64,000 nucleotides of DNA, from the NCBI RefSeq assembly GCF_044337415.1, contig NZ_JBIINP010000001.1:10321-74320 (forward strand), given 5' to 3'. Source of the stretch: Luteitalea sp. (GTDB lineage: Bacteria > Acidobacteriota > Vicinamibacteria > Vicinamibacterales > Vicinamibacteraceae). Of this stretch, positions 6,046 to 60,991 are shown piece by piece. Every line of letters begins with the position of its first letter. Positions within the stretch are counted from its first letter, which is position 1. A model generated the notes under the pieces. The model made no database searches and had not been told where the DNA came from. It worked only from the letters and a program-made list of their open reading frames with translations. The position numbers and the translations under genes are program-made.

Positions 6046-7491
6046 ATGGCCATCACGCAGAAGCTCCAGACCCGTCTTTCGCAGAAGCTCGTCCTGACGC
6101 CCTCGTTGCAGCAGGCGATCAAGCTCCTGCCGATGACGACGCTCGAGCTGGCCGAGCTCCTGACGCAGGAAATCGTCGAGAACCCGATGCTCGAGGAGGT
6201 CCCCACCGAGGAACTGCAACAGGTGGACCCGCAGGCGCAGACCTCCGAGCCGGAAGCACCGGAAGCCCCCAAGCCCGATCGCCCCGACGCCAACTGGGAC
6301 GAGCAGGACTACGCCTACTTCTTCGGGGAGTACCTCGACGACGGCGGGTACCGGTCGCGGATGCCCGTGGAAGTCAAGGAACTGCCGCCGATCGAGAACA
6401 CGCTCTCGACGTCGGGATCGTTGGCCGATCATTTGCTCTGGCAGCTGTCGATGCGGCCCGATGTCACGGGGACGCAGCGCGAGATCGGCGAGGCGATCAT
6501 CGGCAACCTCAACGACGACGGCTACCTGATGGCGTCGGTCGACGAACTGGCCCAGATGGGGGGCTGGTCGCCGTCGGAGGTCGAAGGGGTGCTCTCGATG
6601 CTCCAGCACCTCGACCCGGTCGGGGTGGCGGCGCGCGACCTGCAGGAGTGCCTGACGCTGCAACTGCGGCACCTCGGCCATGCCGACACCCCCGCCGAGG
6701 CCATCGTCATCGACCACCTCCGGCTGCTGCAGAACCACCAGGTGCCCGAGATTGCCAAGCGGATGGGCATGCCGGTGGAGCAGTTGAAGGACCACATCGA
6801 GATCATCCGGCACCTCGACCCGAAGCCGGGCAGCCGCTTCAATCCGGCGCCGTCGCAGTACGTGATGCCCGATGTGTACATCGTCAAGGTCGAGGATCAG
6901 TATGTCGCCGTGCTGAACGACGACGGGTTGCCGCAGCTGCGGATCAGCCCGGTCTACAAGCGGCTCCTCGACAACAAGCACGACGAGTCGGCCGCCGAGA
7001 CGCGCGCGTACGTGAAGGAGAAGTTCCGCTCGGCGCTGTGGCTGCTCAAGTCGGTGGACCAGCGGCAGAAGACCATCATCAAGGTCGCCACCTCGATCAT
7101 CACGTTCCAGAAGGAGTTCCTGGACCACGGGATCGAGCACCTGCGGCCGCTCGTGCTGCGCGACGTCGCCGAGGACATCGGCATGCACGAGAGCACGGTC
7201 AGCCGCGTGGTCAACAACAAGTACATGCACACGCCGCAGGGCGTGTTCGAGATGAAGTACTTCTTCCACAGCGGCATCAGCAGCTCGTTCGGCGAGAGCG
7301 TCTCGTCGGTGACGATCAAGCAGCGGATCCGCAAGATCATCGAGGCGGAGGACGGCCGCAAGCCGCTCAGCGACTCGAAGATCGTCAGCATCCTGCAGCG
7401 TGAGGGGCTCGTGCTCGCGCGCAGGACCATCGCGAAGTACCGCGAGGAGCTTCGCATCCCCACGTCGAACCAGCGCAAGGTGCTGTACTAG
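6046..7491 (+). CDS. rpoN: RNA polymerase sigma-54 factor
   Basis: Q/L-rich region I (LTPSLQQAIKLL), HESTVSR HTH, RpoN box ARRTIAKYR. Confidence 0.97.
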   Translation: MAITQKLQTRLSQKLVLTPSLQQAIKLLPMTTLELAELLTQEIVENPMLEEVPTEELQQVDPQAQTSEPEAPEAPKPDRPDANWDEQDYAYFFGEYLDDGGYRSRMPVEVKELPPIENTLSTSGSLADHLLWQLSMRPDVTGTQREIGEAIIGNLNDDGYLMASVDELAQMGGWSPSEVEGVLSMLQHLDPVGVAARDLQECLTLQLRHLGHADTPAEAIVIDHLRLLQNHQVPEIAKRMGMPVEQLKDHIEIIRHLDPKPGSRFNPAPSQYVMPDVYIVKVEDQYVAVLNDDGLPQLRISPVYKRLLDNKHDESAAETRAYVKEKFRSALWLLKSVDQRQKTIIKVATSIITFQKEFLDHGIEHLRPLVLRDVAEDIGMHESTVSRVVNNKYMHTPQGVFEMKYFFHSGISSSFGESVSSVTIKQRIRKIIEAEDGRKPLSDSKIVSILQREGLVLARRTIAKYREELRIPTSNQRKVLY

Positions 7492-55849: not shown

Positions 55850-56005
55850 CGCTGCGGCGTGGAGCCATCGAGGGGCACGCGCGTCTGCGTGCCCCGTCCG
55901 AAGCGCCGGCTGTCCAGTGACGCCCGGCGCTTCTTTTGGTCTTTATGCTCGTTAAAACAAAGTGCTTCTTTGCCCGATGTGATGATCCTTAGCCGCACCT
56001 CATTC

Positions 56006-56048
56006 AACAAACTTGTCGCACTATGTCAGATGAGAAACATTAATGTCG
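56006..56048 (+). promoter_or_regulatory. Paired ACA-N4-TGTC sites, putative enhancer for the porin promoter
   Basis: AACAAACTTGTCG (56006-56018) and AACATTAATGTCG (56036-56048), 30 bp apart. Confidence 0.6.
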
Positions 56049-56140
56049 GATCTCGGATTCCTGGGGGCACCAGGCGGTAGAGGCGCAATGGATTGTAGAA
56101 ATTCGACTTAGCCTCAACGTGTGACAACCGCGGACGACAG

Positions 56141-56156
56141 CGGCACGGGCTTTGAT
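56141..56156 (+). promoter_or_regulatory. Sigma54-like -24/-12 promoter CGGCACG-GGCT-TTGAT
   Basis: Matches TGGCACG-N4-TTGCW except at the first base and C to A at -12. Confidence 0.5.
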
Positions 56157-56171
56157 AGAGAGAGGAAGTGC

Positions 56172-57446
56172 ATGGCATCCTCTGCCCACTTTGTCTCGTC
56201 ATGGACTCGCCCCGCTGGCGTCGTCTCGGCCCTGACTCTGGCGTCCCTGGTGCTGGTCGCCCCCGCCGCCGCCCAGAGCGGGACGACGGCCGCCGCCGGT
56301 GAGCAGCCAACGCCGGTCACCACGACGGCCGCCCTGATCGAGAAGGCGCCGCCAGAGCCCCAGTCGCCGGCTCAGGCCCCTGCGCCCGCCCAGCCCGTGG
56401 AGGTCGCCGCTCCCGCCCCCACCAACCCCTGGATGCGGCTCTTCGGCCCCACCAAGGTGTCGACAACGGGCGACACGTACTACGCCTACAACGGCAACGA
56501 GCCCTCGTCTGGCAAGAACGTCCTTCGCAACTTCGACGAGAACGACAACCAGTTCTCCGGCAGCTACTTCGAGATCGCGTTCGAGCAGGTGCCGACCGAG
56601 AAGCGCCGCCTCGGCTTCCGGACCGACATCGGGTTCGGACCGACGGCGACGTGGGTCAACTCGACCGATCCGGATGATGGGGCCCTGAAGTACCTGCAGC
56701 AGGCCTACGTGAGCGTCCTGGCTCCGGTGGGCCGCGGCCTCCAGATCGACGTCGGCAAGTTCAACACGCCGATCGGGGCCGAGCCGACCGAAACCGCCTA
56801 CAACTGGAACTATTCGCGTTCGCTGCTCTTCTCGTGGGCGGCCCCCTACTACCATCTCGGGATGCGGGCCTCGCTGCCGCTCAGCGACACCGTGTCGGTG
56901 TCGGGCTACCTCATCAACGGCTGGAACAATGCCCAGGACAACAACCGGGGCAAGACCGGGGCGGCGACGGTCAGCTGGAAGGTCACGCCGGCGCTCACCC
57001 TCTCGCAGGCCTGGATGGGCGGCCCCGAGGGGCCCAACGGCGCGGCGGGCTGGCGCAACCTCTACGACACCATCGCGACCTGGACGGTGAACCCGCGGCT
57101 GACCCTGATGACCAACATCGACATCGGTCGCGACACGGTGGGCGGCGTGACCACGGCGTGGCAGGGCATCGCCGGGTATGGGCGGGTGGTGGTGCTCCCC
57201 TCCTGGGCCCTGGCCAGCCGGTTCGAGGTCTTCGAAGATCGTGATGGTTTCATGACGGGCACCGCCCAGACCATCCAGGAAATCACCCTGACCAGCGAGC
57301 ACACCATCGTGAAGGGGCTCGCCTTGCGCGTCGAGTACCGGCGCGACTGGTCCGACGAGGATTTCTTCGAGTACAAGACGGACCAGTTCCGGCCACAGCA
57401 GAACACGATCCTCTTCGGCTTCACCTACGCCCTGGCCACGCCCTGA
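56172..57446 (+). CDS. Outer-membrane beta-barrel porin (OmpL-like/BBP2 family)
   Basis: SD AGAGGAAG, signal peptide (APAAA-Q), DTYYAYN, LQQAYVS, DVGKFNTPIGAE, NWNYSRSLLF, NGWNN, RVEYRRD, terminal FGFTYAL. Confidence 0.8.
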   Translation: MASSAHFVSSWTRPAGVVSALTLASLVLVAPAAAQSGTTAAAGEQPTPVTTTAALIEKAPPEPQSPAQAPAPAQPVEVAAPAPTNPWMRLFGPTKVSTTGDTYYAYNGNEPSSGKNVLRNFDENDNQFSGSYFEIAFEQVPTEKRRLGFRTDIGFGPTATWVNSTDPDDGALKYLQQAYVSVLAPVGRGLQIDVGKFNTPIGAEPTETAYNWNYSRSLLFSWAAPYYHLGMRASLPLSDTVSVSGYLINGWNNAQDNNRGKTGAATVSWKVTPALTLSQAWMGGPEGPNGAAGWRNLYDTIATWTVNPRLTLMTNIDIGRDTVGGVTTAWQGIAGYGRVVVLPSWALASRFEVFEDRDGFMTGTAQTIQEITLTSEHTIVKGLALRVEYRRDWSDEDFFEYKTDQFRPQQNTILFGFTYALATP

Positions 57447-57455
57447 GGTGCGAGC

Positions 57456-57482
57456 GGCGGGCCGTCACTGGGGCGGCCCGCC
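57456..57482 (+). terminator. GC-rich hairpin after the porin gene
   Basis: 9-bp stem GGCGGGCCG/CGGCCCGCC with a 9-nt loop; no U-tract. Confidence 0.4.
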
Positions 57483-57551
57483 ACGCTGACCAGCCGATTG
57501 CGTCATGCGCCACGGTTCTGCGCTCACGGCGACGCCGGAAAGGCGTAGGCT

Positions 57552-59117
57552 ATGGGCCGCATGCCCAGGCAACTGGCCGTCAGGGTCGAGGCTGATCACC
57601 TCGCGGCCCTGCTGTCGCTCGGTCCCGTGCTGAGCGAGGCCCCCAACCTCAAGACAGCCCTGGCTCGTGCCCTCGAGCACGTGACGGAGGCCGTGTCGGC
57701 GCGCAGTGGCCTCATCGCCCTGCGCGAGGGCGACGGCCGGGAACTCTCGGTGGCGGCGGCCACCGGCATCAGTTGGCAGACCGCCCAGCGTGTGCGGTAT
57801 CGCGTCGGCGAGGGCATCATCGGCCGGGTCGTCGAGACCGGTCGGCCGGTGGTGGTGCCGCGCGCCAGCCAGGAGCCCCTGTTCCTGAACCGTACCGGCG
57901 TGCACAAGCGCACGGCAGCGGCCGGCGAGGACACGTCGTTCCTGTGCGTCCCGATTTGTGCGGCGGGTGCCTGTGTCGGCGCCGTCGGCCTGGCGCGTCC
58001 CCATCGTCCAGACGCCGACGTCGAGCGGTTGATGCAGTTCCTGGGCGTCGTGGCTTCCCTGCTCGGCTATGCCGTGCGTGTCCACGGGCTGCAGCAGGCC
58101 GAGCGGCAGCAGCTGGTGGCCGAGAACGCGCAATTGCGCGAGGAACTCCGCGAGCGCTACGACTTCCGCAACATCATCGGCAGCAGCCGTCCGATGCAGG
58201 CGCTGTTCGGGCAGGTGACGCAGGTGGCCCGCAGCCAGACGACGGCGCTGATTCGCGGCGAGTCGGGCACCGGCAAGGAACTCATCGCGCACGCGATTCA
58301 CTACCACTCGGCCCGCGCGAGCAAGCCGTTCGTGAAGGTCAATTGCGGTGCCCTGCCCGAGGGACTCGTGGAATCGGAGCTGTTCGGGCACGAGGCCGGC
58401 GCGTTCACCGACGCACGCACCGCCAAGAAGGGGCGCTTCGAACTGGCGCACGGCGGCACGCTCTTCCTCGACGAGGTCGGCGAACTGTCGGTGGGCACCC
58501 AGGTCAAGCTGCTCCGGGTGCTGCAGGAGCGCGAGTTCGAGCGGCTGGGCGGCACGCAGACCATCCGTGTGAACGTGCGACTCATCGCCGCCACCAACCG
58601 CGACCTCGAGGACGCCGTCAAGGCGCGCACGTTCCGCGAAGACCTCTACTACCGGCTGAACGTGTTCTCGCTGTTCCTGCCGCCCCTGCGCGACCGCAAG
58701 CCCGACATCCTGCTGCTCGCCGACCATTTCGTCGAGAAGTACGCCGCGGCCCACGGCAAGGACGTCCGTCGCCTGGCGACAACGGCCATCGACATGCTCA
58801 TGAGCTATCACTGGCCGGGCAATGTCCGCGAACTCGAGAACTGCATCGAGCGCGCGGTACTGGTGGCGACCGGCGGCGTGATTCACGGCCACGACCTGCC
58901 TCCGAGCCTGCAGACCGCCGAGGTCTCGGGCACCCTGCCCCGCGTGTCGCTGGCGTCGGCGACGGCCGCGCTCGAGACCGACCTGATTCAGGACGCCCTC
59001 AAGACCGCGGGCGGCAACCTGGCCCGCACGGCGCGGCTGCTCGACACCACCGAGCGGATCGTCGCGTACAAGGTCAAGAAGCTCGGCATCGACCTCCGTC
59101 GCTTCCGCCGAGAGTAG
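57552..59117 (+). CDS. NifA-like sigma54 enhancer-binding protein (GAF, AAA+, HTH)
   Basis: GAF domain (YRVGEGIIGRV..TG, SFLCVPI), GESGTGKE, ESELFGHEAGAFTDA, LFLDEVG, IAATNRDL, FREDLYYRLNV, WPGNVRELEN, HTH GNLARTARLLDTTERIVAYKV. Confidence 0.9.
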   Translation: MGRMPRQLAVRVEADHLAALLSLGPVLSEAPNLKTALARALEHVTEAVSARSGLIALREGDGRELSVAAATGISWQTAQRVRYRVGEGIIGRVVETGRPVVVPRASQEPLFLNRTGVHKRTAAAGEDTSFLCVPICAAGACVGAVGLARPHRPDADVERLMQFLGVVASLLGYAVRVHGLQQAERQQLVAENAQLREELRERYDFRNIIGSSRPMQALFGQVTQVARSQTTALIRGESGTGKELIAHAIHYHSARASKPFVKVNCGALPEGLVESELFGHEAGAFTDARTAKKGRFELAHGGTLFLDEVGELSVGTQVKLLRVLQEREFERLGGTQTIRVNVRLIAATNRDLEDAVKARTFREDLYYRLNVFSLFLPPLRDRKPDILLLADHFVEKYAAAHGKDVRRLATTAIDMLMSYHWPGNVRELENCIERAVLVATGGVIHGHDLPPSLQTAEVSGTLPRVSLASATAALETDLIQDALKTAGGNLARTARLLDTTERIVAYKVKKLGIDLRRFRRE

Positions 59118-59119
59118 GC

Positions 59120-59163
59120 GACGTAAATGTCGGATCATCGGTGAACGGCAGACAGAATTGTCT
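59120..59163 (+). promoter_or_regulatory. Paired AC(A/G)-N4-TGTC sites, putative enhancer for amtB-glnK
   Basis: GACGTAAATGTCG (59120-59132) and GACAGAATTGTCT (59151-59163), 31 bp apart. Confidence 0.6.
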
Positions 59164-59211
59164 GATTCCGTTCCTGGCCGATTCCTGACGATTCGCTGCA
59201 ACATCCTTCAA

Positions 59212-59224
59212 TATCAGTGACTTG
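59212..59224 (+). promoter_or_regulatory. IHF-like site TATCAGTGACTTG
   Basis: Fits WATCAR-N4-TTR and lies between the enhancer pair and the promoter. Confidence 0.45.
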
Positions 59225-59253
59225 CAAAAGTCACAGCCTGTGCCAGTTCGATC

Positions 59254-59269
59254 AAGCATCGAATTTGCT
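59254..59269 (+). promoter_or_regulatory. Degenerate sigma54-like promoter AAGCATC-GAAT-TTGCT
   Basis: Perfect TTGCT -12 element; -24 reads AG instead of GG. Supported mainly by position relative to the paired sites. Confidence 0.4.
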
Positions 59270-59348
59270 ACGTAATAGAGCCGAGCGGACGCGACCCGCG
59301 TGGGACACCGACGTCCCGCCCGGCCCGTCGTCTCCATTCGGAGGATCG

Positions 59349-60632
59349 ATGAACAACGCAGATGTGGCGTGGATGCTGGTCTCCACGGCCCTCGTGCTGC
59401 TGATGACCCCGGCCCTGGCCTTCTTCTACGGCGGGCTGGTCCGGTCCAAGAACGCGCTCAACACGATGATGATGTCGTTCATCTCGTTGGGCTTCGCGGG
59501 TGTGGCGTGGGCCCTCGTCGGGTACTCCCTCGCTTTCGCCCCGGGCACGCCCTGGGTAGGTGGACTGAACTTCGCCTTCCTGAAGGGCGTGACGCTGGAC
59601 CCGCAGGGCACGATTCCCCATGTGCTGTTCATGGCGTTCCAGGGCACGTTCGCGGTCATCACGGCGGCGCTCATCTCCGGGGCCGTGGTGGAGCGCATGC
59701 GGTTCAGCGCCTACATCGCCTTCATCACGCTGTGGGTGCTGGTCGTATACGCGCCGGTCGCCCACTGGGTGTGGGGCGGCGGCTGGCTGGCCACCATGGG
59801 CGCACTCGACTTCGCCGGCGGTACGGTGGTCCATGTGAACGCCGCCGCGGCGGCGCTGGTGGCCGCCGTGGTGGTCGGTCCCCGGTTCGACCACGGCCGG
59901 CAGGCGATGCTGCCGCACAACGTGCCGTTCGTGCTGCTCGGCGCGGGCCTGCTGTGGTTCGGCTGGTTCGGCTTCAACGCCGGTAGCGCGCTCTCGGCCA
60001 ACGGCATCGCCGGCCTGGCGTTCACCAACACGATGCTCGCACCGATGGCGACGCTGGTCGTCTGGACGCTGCTCGACGTTGTCCGGACGGGCCGCGCGAC
60101 GGCAGTGGGCGGCGCCACCGCGATCGTCGTGGGCCTGGTGGCCATCACGCCCGCGGCCGGCTACGTCAGCCCGATGTCGTCGCTGCTCCTCGGTGGGCTG
60201 GCGGCCGTCCCCAGCTACTTCGCGATTCAGTTCCGGGCCAGCACACGCCTCGACGACTCGCTGGACGTGGTCGCGGCGCACGGCGTCGGCGGCACCGTGG
60301 GCGCGCTGCTCACGGGCGTCTTCGCCGACAAGGCGTGGAGCGGCGCGGCCAACGGGCTCGTCGGCGGCAACGCGGCCCAGATCGGGATCCAGGCGGCCGG
60401 CATCGGCGCCGCGCTGGTCTACAGCGCCGTCATGACCTTCGTCCTCTTGAAGCTCATCGCGCTGGTCCTGCCGCTTCGCACGGGCACGCGTGATGAGGCC
60501 CTCGGTCTCGACGTCAGCGACCACGGCGAAGAGGCGTACGCCCACGGCGACGGGGCGATCCTCATCAGCCCCGACCTGCTGCACGGGGCGGTGGCCAGCA
60601 GCGCCGTGACGGCGGAAGGGAGCCGGGCATGA
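59349..60632 (+). CDS. amtB: Ammonium transporter
   Basis: LMTPALAFFYGG, FQGTFAVIT.ALISG, DFAGGTVVH and DVVAAHG (twin His), LLWFGWFGFNAGS, GLVAITP, GLD...HGEEAY. Confidence 0.97.
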   Translation: MNNADVAWMLVSTALVLLMTPALAFFYGGLVRSKNALNTMMMSFISLGFAGVAWALVGYSLAFAPGTPWVGGLNFAFLKGVTLDPQGTIPHVLFMAFQGTFAVITAALISGAVVERMRFSAYIAFITLWVLVVYAPVAHWVWGGGWLATMGALDFAGGTVVHVNAAAAALVAAVVVGPRFDHGRQAMLPHNVPFVLLGAGLLWFGWFGFNAGSALSANGIAGLAFTNTMLAPMATLVVWTLLDVVRTGRATAVGGATAIVVGLVAITPAAGYVSPMSSLLLGGLAAVPSYFAIQFRASTRLDDSLDVVAAHGVGGTVGALLTGVFADKAWSGAANGLVGGNAAQIGIQAAGIGAALVYSAVMTFVLLKLIALVLPLRTGTRDEALGLDVSDHGEEAYAHGDGAILISPDLLHGAVASSAVTAEGSRA

Positions 60633-60991
60633 AGATGGTCGTGGCATTCGTCAGGCCCGAGAAAATCAACGACGTCCTGCAGGCGCTGTTCAGCGTCCAG
60701 GTCCGCGGGCTGACCATCAGCCGCGGCCAGGGCCACGGCGGCGAGACCGAGCACGTCGAGAACTATCGGGGTACGAGCGTCAAGATGGCGCTCGCCGAGA
60801 AGGTGCGCATCGAGATCGGCGTCAGCAACGGCTTCGTCGAGCGGACCATCGAGGCCATCGCCGGCGCCGCGCGCACGGGCGAGGTGGGAGACGGGAAGAT
60901 CTTCGTGCTGCCGGTCGAGCGCGTCGTGCGCATCCGCACCGGAGAGCAGGATCAGGATGCGGTGACGCCCGTCGCCGTGCTCCACCAGTAG
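60629..60991 (+). CDS. glnK: P-II nitrogen regulatory protein
   Basis: VRPEK, YRG, EKVRIEI, ARTGEVGDGKIFVLPVERVVRIRTGE; overlaps the amtB stop. Confidence 0.93.
   Translation: MKMVVAFVRPEKINDVLQALFSVQVRGLTISRGQGHGGETEHVENYRGTSVKMALAEKVRIEIGVSNGFVERTIEAIAGAARTGEVGDGKIFVLPVERVVRIRTGEQDQDAVTPVAVLHQ

Follow-up and report, generated by a model that had tools for sequence, protein, structure and literature searches.

A 64,000-nucleotide stretch of DNA from Luteitalea sp. (contig NZ_JBIINP010000001.1, positions 10,321 to 74,320), referred to here as the window, contains a group of four genes that lie in one orientation and encode an outer-membrane porin, a NifA-like one-component transcription activator, the ammonium transporter AmtB and the P-II protein GlnK. 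The start codon of glnK overlaps the stop codon of amtB (ATGA, 60629-60632), an arrangement that would couple translation of the two genes. Upstream of both the porin gene and amtB lie paired short palindromes, or dyads, followed by candidate -24/-12 promoters of the sigma-54 type (Table 1). Together these elements point to a small nitrogen-limitation regulon that is probably run by the activator encoded in its midst.

Table 1. Genes and putative control elements of the porin-activator-amtB-glnK locus, in window coordinates.
Feature	Positions	Strand	Evidence
BBP2/OmpL-like outer-membrane beta-barrel porin, with signal peptide	56172-57446	+	PF07642, E=4e-73
NifA-like one-component activator, GAF-AAA+(Sigma54_activat)-HTH_8	57561-59117	+	Pfam domains, TIGR01817 score
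AmtB ammonium transporter	59349-60632	+	PF00909, E=9e-119; TIGR00836, 428 bits
P-II protein (GlnK)	60629-60991	+	PF00543
P1, distal putative enhancer dyad of porin, CAACAAACTTGTCGCA	56005-56020		Read directly; conserved in 14 orthologous loci; position weight matrix (PWM) rank 4 genome-wide
P2, proximal putative enhancer dyad of porin, AAACATTAATGTCGGATC	56035-56052		Best PWM score in genome; conserved, identity 0.81
A1, distal putative enhancer dyad of amtB, CGACGTAAATGTCGGATC	59119-59136		Sequence, orthologue alignment, PWM
A2, proximal putative enhancer dyad of amtB, CAGACAGAATTGTCTGA, perfect 6-4-6 palindrome	59149-59165		Sequence, orthologue alignment, PWM
Porin -24/-12 candidate promoter cGGCAC-N5-TTGAt, CGGCACGGGCTTTGAT	56141-56156	+	Alignment consensus TGGCAC-N5-(T/G)TG(A/G)TAG
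amtB -24/-12 candidate promoter aAGCAT-N5-TTGCT, AAGCATCGAATTTGCT	59254-59269	+	Consensus GAGCAY-CGANN-TTGCT in 15/15 orthologues
IHF-like site of amtB region, TATCAGTGACTTG (WATCAA-N4-TTR type)	59212-59224		CAA-N4-TTG core conserved in orthologues
Weak IHF-like CAA-N4-TTG of porin region, CAATGGATTG	56086-56095		Read directly; poorly conserved, identity 0.43; low confidence
Possible -10 element TAGGCT of the activator's constitutive promoter	57546-57551	+	Inferred only
Conserved structured amtB 5' leader, nested helices around GUGGGAC...GUCCCGC	59288-59333	+	RNAalifold
rpoN (sigma-54)	6076-7479 (C309:16396-17799)	+	TIGR02395, 458.9 bits, over cut-off

Two dyads precede the porin gene (P1 and P2) and two precede amtB (A1 and A2), with A1 beginning 2 bp past the stop codon of the activator gene. 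All share the core ACA/ACG-N4-TGTC, which fits the family consensus cGACA-N4-TGTCgga, and the cores of a pair are 30 bp apart at the porin and 31 bp apart at amtB. A reading of this DNA made earlier from its letters alone (the sequence-only reading) had reported both spacings and a sequence common to the two regions; each can be read directly, the common sequence being AATGTCGGATC, which occurs in P2 and A1.

Orthologous loci were collected from 30 related genomes, and synteny is kept in 17 loci. The order porin-activator-amtB-glnK is retained in the genus of the window and in a second genus (g1 and g4), and a third genus has activator-amtB-glnK; the same locus is also present in genome G002, a single contig of 7.48 Mb. 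When 11-15 orthologous Vicinamibacteraceae loci are aligned, both dyad pairs, the CAA-N4-TTG element and both -24/-12 blocks stand out as sharp footprints on diverged DNA. Across 11 loci of the genus level, bases inside these elements match the window at an identity of 0.77 and 0.69, compared with 0.40 and 0.38 in the remaining intergenic DNA. Conservation of the motif in orthologous loci, whose absence would have counted against the sequence-only reading, is therefore observed for the dyads, whose alignment consensus is cGACA-nnAw-TGTCGGAt.

The dyads are also exceptional within the genome. With a PWM built from the orthologous sites alone, the window being excluded, ~10.6 million positions of the 5.33 Mb genome were scored, and the four sites of the window took ranks 1-4. 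High-scoring single sites elsewhere in the genome are mostly inside genes. A scan for paired sites, which had been proposed together with the original observation, recovered the porin and amtB pairs and no further pair in the genome, so that by the dyad-motif criterion the regulon is local and consists of the porin and amtB-glnK only. Neither control region contains an NtrC-type GCAC-N5-7-GTGC sequence. The NifA-type sequence TGT-N10-ACA is absent upstream of amtB and occurs once upstream of the porin, at 56024, where it is not conserved in orthologues.

The protein encoded between the two control regions has the composition expected of an enhancer-binding protein, with a GAF domain (PF01590/PF13185), a sigma-54 AAA+ domain (PF00158, E=1e-72) and a Fis-type helix-turn-helix (HTH) domain (PF02954). 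A Pfam scan finds no receiver (REC) domain on it. Its score against the nifA model TIGR01817 is 523.9 bits, falling slightly short of the curated cut-off of 528.85. A solved Nif-specific regulatory protein, 9qq6_C, matches it from end to end, through the HTH as well (E=2e-114). Close homologues are named 'Nif-specific regulatory protein' by JGI and carry generic names at NCBI. The recognition helix, TTERIVAYKVKK, is distinct from the MTPRQIAYRIQT of NifA, and the corresponding helix TTERIxxYKVKK is conserved throughout the activator family. Sensing of redox state through a cysteine cluster was considered and rejected for this protein, as its cysteine residues are not conserved: the GAF domain holds no Cys cluster, having a single moderately conserved Cys, and neither an interdomain Cys motif nor a NifL partner was found for the activator.

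A further indication of what this protein binds comes from its relatives. We compared 14 homologues from related genomes with 80 more distant ones (52-87% identity) from several Acidobacteriota classes, Gemmatimonadota, Myxococcota, Desulfobacterota, Hydrogenedentota and others. A palindrome of the form C[G/T]ACA-N4-TGT[C/A]G is found directly beside the activator gene in homologous loci. Across 93 loci, the density of exact ACA-N4-TGT is 2.12 per kb up to 300 bp from either end of the activator gene and 0.127 per kb over the remainder of the loci, a 17-fold difference. Paired palindromes are separated by 30 bp in 23 cases, by 31 bp in 9 and by 29 bp in two, other spacings being very rare. Pairs downstream of the activator gene are followed at 100-116 bp by a TGGCA-N6-TTGC -24/-12 promoter and then by a GSIII, GlnD or porin gene.

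The neighbourhoods of these homologues indicate what the sites might serve. In 51 of the 94 loci, the activator gene has a nitrogen-assimilation gene no more than 4 kb away. The neighbouring families are amtB (27 loci), P-II (17), the type III glutamine synthetase GSIII (12), BBP2 porin (9), DUF481 outer-membrane protein (7), NasA-like molybdopterin oxidoreductase (6), GlnD (4), GltB (4), GltD (4) and the type I enzyme GSI (2); in other phyla the BBP2-type porin is located after amtB-glnK. These associations provide strong comparative evidence that members of the activator family bind the dyad and govern nitrogen-assimilation genes. Covariation between the recognition helix and the base (G or T) preceding ACA was also looked for, and no clean pattern emerged.

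The dyads could conceivably serve an unlinked transcription factor other than the activator, such as a nitrogen-gene repressor; the activator would then have its targets elsewhere or use other sequences. Palindromes of this size do fit many dimeric regulators, and related genera have one dyad overlapping the start region of the activator gene, a position typical of repression. However, an unlinked factor would not readily account for a motif that tracks the activator gene across phyla with such strong local enrichment and fixed 30-31 bp pairing, for dyads placed 100-116 bp upstream of -24/-12 elements, which is the classic enhancer distance, or for a geometry identical to that of the homologous AnfA and VnfA sites (see below). 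Moreover, the helix TTERIxxYKVKK is conserved together with the motif. We regard the unlinked factor as highly unlikely, and the protein of NifA architecture, which the sequence-only reading had put forward, stands as the best candidate binder in view of the footprints, the genomic uniqueness of the sites and their co-occurrence with its family.

The proximal ACA of each pair lies 115 bp (porin) or 113 bp (amtB) from the start of a TTG(A/C) element; the values of 116 and 114 bp given earlier are the same distances counted with a one-off definition. When the two blocks are compared with the pattern GG-N10-GC, their spacing and most of their positions fit and are conserved, the exceptions being AG at -25/-24 of amtB and GA/GG at -13/-12 of the porin. 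An IHF-like site between the dyads and the promoter of amtB had likewise been noted before, and its core is conserved in orthologues, with a perfect ATCAA-N4-TTG at this position in two of them (L063 and L064). The genome carries three genes of the HU/IHF family. Taken with the comparative data, these features make it probable that the NifA-like activator switches on the porin gene and amtB-glnK through the paired dyads and sigma-54 promoters.

Several observations weigh against this reading. The porin promoter has a canonical -24 block but carries A or G in place of C at -12 in every orthologue, and the amtB promoter has a canonical -12 block but carries A (C in some relatives) in place of G at -25 in 15 of 15 orthologues, even though fully canonical TGGCAY-N5-TTGCT promoters occur elsewhere in the genome. 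The sigma-54 contact loop of the activator (58395-58412) reads GAFTDA instead of GAFTGA in 16 of 16 Vicinamibacteraceae orthologues, the wider family having the consensus GAFTGA; the variant is listed as functional and compatible with activity (PMC4641369). Also, cross-regulation is possible since the genome encodes ~26 other enhancer-binding proteins.

Because each promoter departs from the consensus at a key base, sigma-54 dependence is a prediction, and the promoter deviations together with the canonical promoters elsewhere would suit a different explanation, in which another sigma factor reads both promoters and the dyads are ordinary activator or repressor sites. The remaining 12-13 promoter positions are nevertheless conserved at the exact sigma-54 block spacing, homologous loci in other phyla have canonical GG/GC at the equivalent place, and the neighbouring regulator is by domain content an obligate partner of sigma-54. 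Furthermore, a scan of the locus found neither sigma-70-like promoters nor terminators. Dependence on another sigma factor thus appears improbable. The existence of canonical promoters elsewhere in the genome implies that the deviations are specific to this locus and selected.

The non-consensus bases were tracked in L062-L076, L098, L109 and L156. The deviation at -25 of amtB recurs in other Acidobacteriota, whereas homologous loci of Gemmatimonadota and Desulfomonilaceae have the canonical GG. Canonical -24/-12 words number 9 genome-wide versus a hand-calculated chance expectation of ~4, a weak excess that was not used to define a sigmulon.

The genome, which is estimated to be 100% complete and has one copy of rpoN, was also searched for the established regulators of nitrogen metabolism. 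The statement that the window lacks nif and ntrBC genes extends to the whole genome: nifH is absent, the best match to its model scoring 29.7 bits against a cut-off of 394, no protein exceeds the cut-off for NtrC, and no NtrB-like kinase lies beside the best NtrC candidates. There are ~27 enhancer-binding proteins in all, of which ~15 are of the receiver type, and on the NtrC model many of the REC-AAA+-HTH proteins reach 370-454 bits. The best match belongs to a PilS/PilR-like kinase-activator gene pair at C207:31482-35601 and lies between pilC, a kinase gene and a pilin gene; we consider it PilR-like because of this context, in which a fully canonical sigma-54 promoter, TGGCACCGCGCTTGCT, stands before the pilin gene. 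The kinase adjacent to the next candidate resembles AtoS rather than NtrB.

With so many receiver-type proteins present, a divergent NtrBC-like system might be the real nitrogen regulator, leaving the NifA-like protein an accessory that responds, for example, to a non-nitrogen signal. Genes for glutamine synthetase (GS), glutamate synthase (GOGAT) and a second AmtB are indeed outside the dyad motif and so must be controlled by something else. Yet the receiver-type candidates all fall below the NtrC cut-off, the best of them lies in a pilus (PilSR-like) setting, the adjacent kinases are AtoS-like rather than NtrB-like, the porin and amtB control regions are devoid of NtrC-type sites, and the neighbourhoods of the activator family are overwhelmingly those of nitrogen assimilation. 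We therefore judge it very improbable that such a system is the real regulator and the NifA-like protein an accessory.

The same genes set the limits of the activator's reach. A GSIII gene, a GSI-like gene, gltBD and a second amtB are located elsewhere in the genome, and the regions upstream of GSIII, the GSI-like gene, gltB and the second amtB have neither the dyad motif nor a -24/-12 element, which argues that the activator is a local rather than a general nitrogen regulator. Accordingly, the proposal in the sequence-only reading that this protein replaces NtrC holds locally, for the porin and amtB-glnK, and fails as a general statement. The second amtB (C375:5-1195) encodes a protein 47% identical to the first that has an N-terminal signal peptide; its gene has a sigma-70-like TTGACC...TACGCT promoter and no dyads, and the ammonium channel that it encodes is probably under different regulation.

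GlnK is the sole P-II protein found in the genome by tblastn, and it has Val51 in place of Tyr51. No GlnD was found in the genome by the same method. With Val51 and no GlnD, this P-II protein should not be uridylylatable, and its signalling must then proceed by effector binding alone. Its gene lies itself under the proposed control of the activator. A feedback role, in which GlnK would be sensed by the GAF domain of the activator, is plausible given that it is the only P-II protein, belongs to the regulon and lacks both Tyr51 and a GlnD partner.

Previous studies have described related arrangements, and the operator in particular is less novel than first thought. In Rhodobacter capsulatus, AnfA uses two TAC-N6-GTA sites, one distal and one proximal, between the anfA stop codon and the RpoN site of anfH, and VnfA sites, as in the vnf system of Azotobacter vinelandii, have the form GTAC-N6-GTAC (PMC7294313). 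Since xACA-N4-TGTx equals xAC-N6-GTx, the present operator is a variant of this published type, and the earlier designation of it as new must be withdrawn: geometry and two-site layout are both on record, and the operator is common to the activator family in many phyla. Like the activator described here, AnfA and VnfA are one-component GAF-AAA+-HTH proteins of the NifA family acting from two dyads ahead of an RpoN promoter, in this case GAC-N6-GTC twice per promoter at 30-31 bp. The anfA-anfH layout is mirrored at amtB, where the dyads lie between the activator stop codon and the promoter. Differences are that the targets here are a porin gene and amtB-glnK in a genome without nitrogenase, that the half-site is GAC/GTC, extended to cGACA...TGTCgga, and that the GAF domain has no Cys cluster.

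NifA itself shares the identical architecture, as the near-cut-off model score and the full-length structural alignment attest, but in this genome it would have no nif genes to act on, no conserved TGT-N10-ACA, a different recognition helix and no NifL. Functionally akin, by the description available, is EbpA of Leptospira interrogans, which a source summarising Hu et al. 2017 (PMC12655853) describes as activating amtB and envelope (lipoprotein) genes with sigma-54 and as needed under nitrogen limitation; the same summary reports binding of EbpA upstream of its targets and mutant data. As portrayed there, EbpA is a GAF-type, receiver-less enhancer-binding protein that acts on amtB in a non-diazotroph, but it is characterized as FhlA-like with two GAF domains.

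A further NifA-like homologue, Nlh1 of Aquifex aeolicus, is thought to regulate nitrogen assimilation (PMC9866876). It is likewise a GAF activator of a non-diazotroph that would serve assimilation rather than fixation, but its similarity to the protein described here is distant, the GAF domain matches weakly (4g3k, E=3e-12) and no shared operator is established. Studholme et al. in 2000 reportedly found Nlh1 bound upstream of glnBA. Finally, the enterobacterial NtrBC system resembles our proposal in its output, an ammonium channel and a partner P-II protein induced with sigma-54 by way of an enhancer lying upstream. It differs in that the present system lacks a receiver domain, NtrB and any TGCACC-N5-GGTGCA site; moreover, the gene order is amtB-glnK rather than glnK-amtB, and the P-II protein is not predicted to be uridylylatable.

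Taken together, these data suggest how the locus may operate as a regulon for nitrogen limitation in a Luteitalea-like acidobacterium that does not fix nitrogen. The activator would probably be made constitutively from its own promoter, and its dimers would bind the tandem dyads upstream of the porin gene and amtB-glnK, three helical turns apart and on one face of the helix. When the GAF domain reports nitrogen shortage, the AAA+ domain would be released and assemble into an active ring, which could reach the sigma-54 holoenzyme ~115 bp downstream by DNA looping, helped at amtB by an IHF-like bend. Opening of the two weak promoters would then yield the porin, AmtB and GlnK, giving the cell one channel in the outer membrane, an ammonium channel in the inner membrane and a P-II protein to gate the latter. 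Unmodifiable GlnK would plug AmtB as the level of 2-oxoglutarate drops, and it may act back on the activator as well.

In this scheme, the protein domains, the sites with their conservation and genomic uniqueness, and their association with this protein family are established by sequence and comparison. From these we infer that the activator binds the dyads and works with sigma-54, what condition induces the regulon, and that 2-oxoglutarate, P-II or both signal to the GAF domain. Any particular signal proposed for the activator is doubtful. The locus is best viewed as a well-supported local example of a widespread and little-described nitrogen circuit, not as a wholly new kind of system.

A broader generalization can be offered tentatively, as something possible rather than probable. 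Homologues with the TTERIxxYKVKK helix may constitute a one-component nitrogen-assimilation regulator that works from tandem xACA-N4-TGTx enhancers in place of NtrBC in Acidobacteriota, Gemmatimonadota, Myxococcota and Desulfobacterota, and that formed the stock from which the nitrogenase-specific regulators NifA, AnfA and VnfA arose. Paralogues in Luteitalea would have split between the porin and amtB-glnK on one hand and nitrate assimilation on the other, and nitrogen status would be read through the GAF domain and an induced, unmodifiable P-II protein.

Acidobacteriota are among the most abundant soil bacteria, and how they sense and respond to nitrogen is essentially undescribed; our literature search found no paper on this activator family or its operator in Acidobacteria. 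The locus offers a concrete, testable circuit: its operator is defined, two promoters drive an output of three genes, and it includes a candidate for the sensor. It also shows that a database label of 'NifA' in such genomes is not a sign of nitrogen fixation, a point that matters wherever diazotrophy is inferred from metagenomes. Moreover, the conserved non-consensus base in each promoter and the conserved GAFTDA loop are leads for the study of sigma-54 mechanism.

Several minor features of the locus concern the activator gene itself. The gene caller begins it at the ATG at 57561, giving a product of 518 amino acids; another possible start at 57552 would give 521. The ATG at 57561 is 9 nt downstream of the conserved TAGGCT, and GGCGTAGGCT and the CATGC start of the gene are conserved within the genus, so the activator mRNA may be leaderless and begin at this ATG. 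No enhancer dyad occurs at the gene's own start in the genus of the window. Three loci of the sister genus g4 (L073, L074 and L079) have a single GACAAAATTGTCG-type dyad just ahead of the activator start, which suggests that the gene is autoregulated there and not in the genus of the window.

Some larger genomes of the genus also encode a second NifA-like paralogue, ~61% identical to the activator (L089, L090 and L091; G010, G002 and G003). In two of three loci (L090 and L091) it adjoins a divergent gene for a NasA-like molybdopterin oxidoreductase and has its own [C/T]ACA-N4-TGT sites. Both this paralogue and its NasA-like neighbour are absent from the genome of the window. The arrangement suggests that the NifA-like paralogues are specialised, one for ammonium and the other for nitrate.

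The leaders of the two target transcripts are dissimilar. The porin ATG lies only ~17 nt after the -12 element, and the porin mRNA would therefore be nearly leaderless. The amtB leader is predicted by RNAalifold to form 16 base pairs, five of them with compensatory changes, among 11 genus-level sequences. An Rfam search of the locus (E<=10) gave no match for this leader and nothing else credible. A CUCC...GGAGG stem proximal to the Shine-Dalgarno sequence may form as well, and in more distant orthologues another hairpin occupies this position of the leader. Lastly, the single rpoN gene of the genome shares the 64 kb window with the porin and amtB-glnK regulon.

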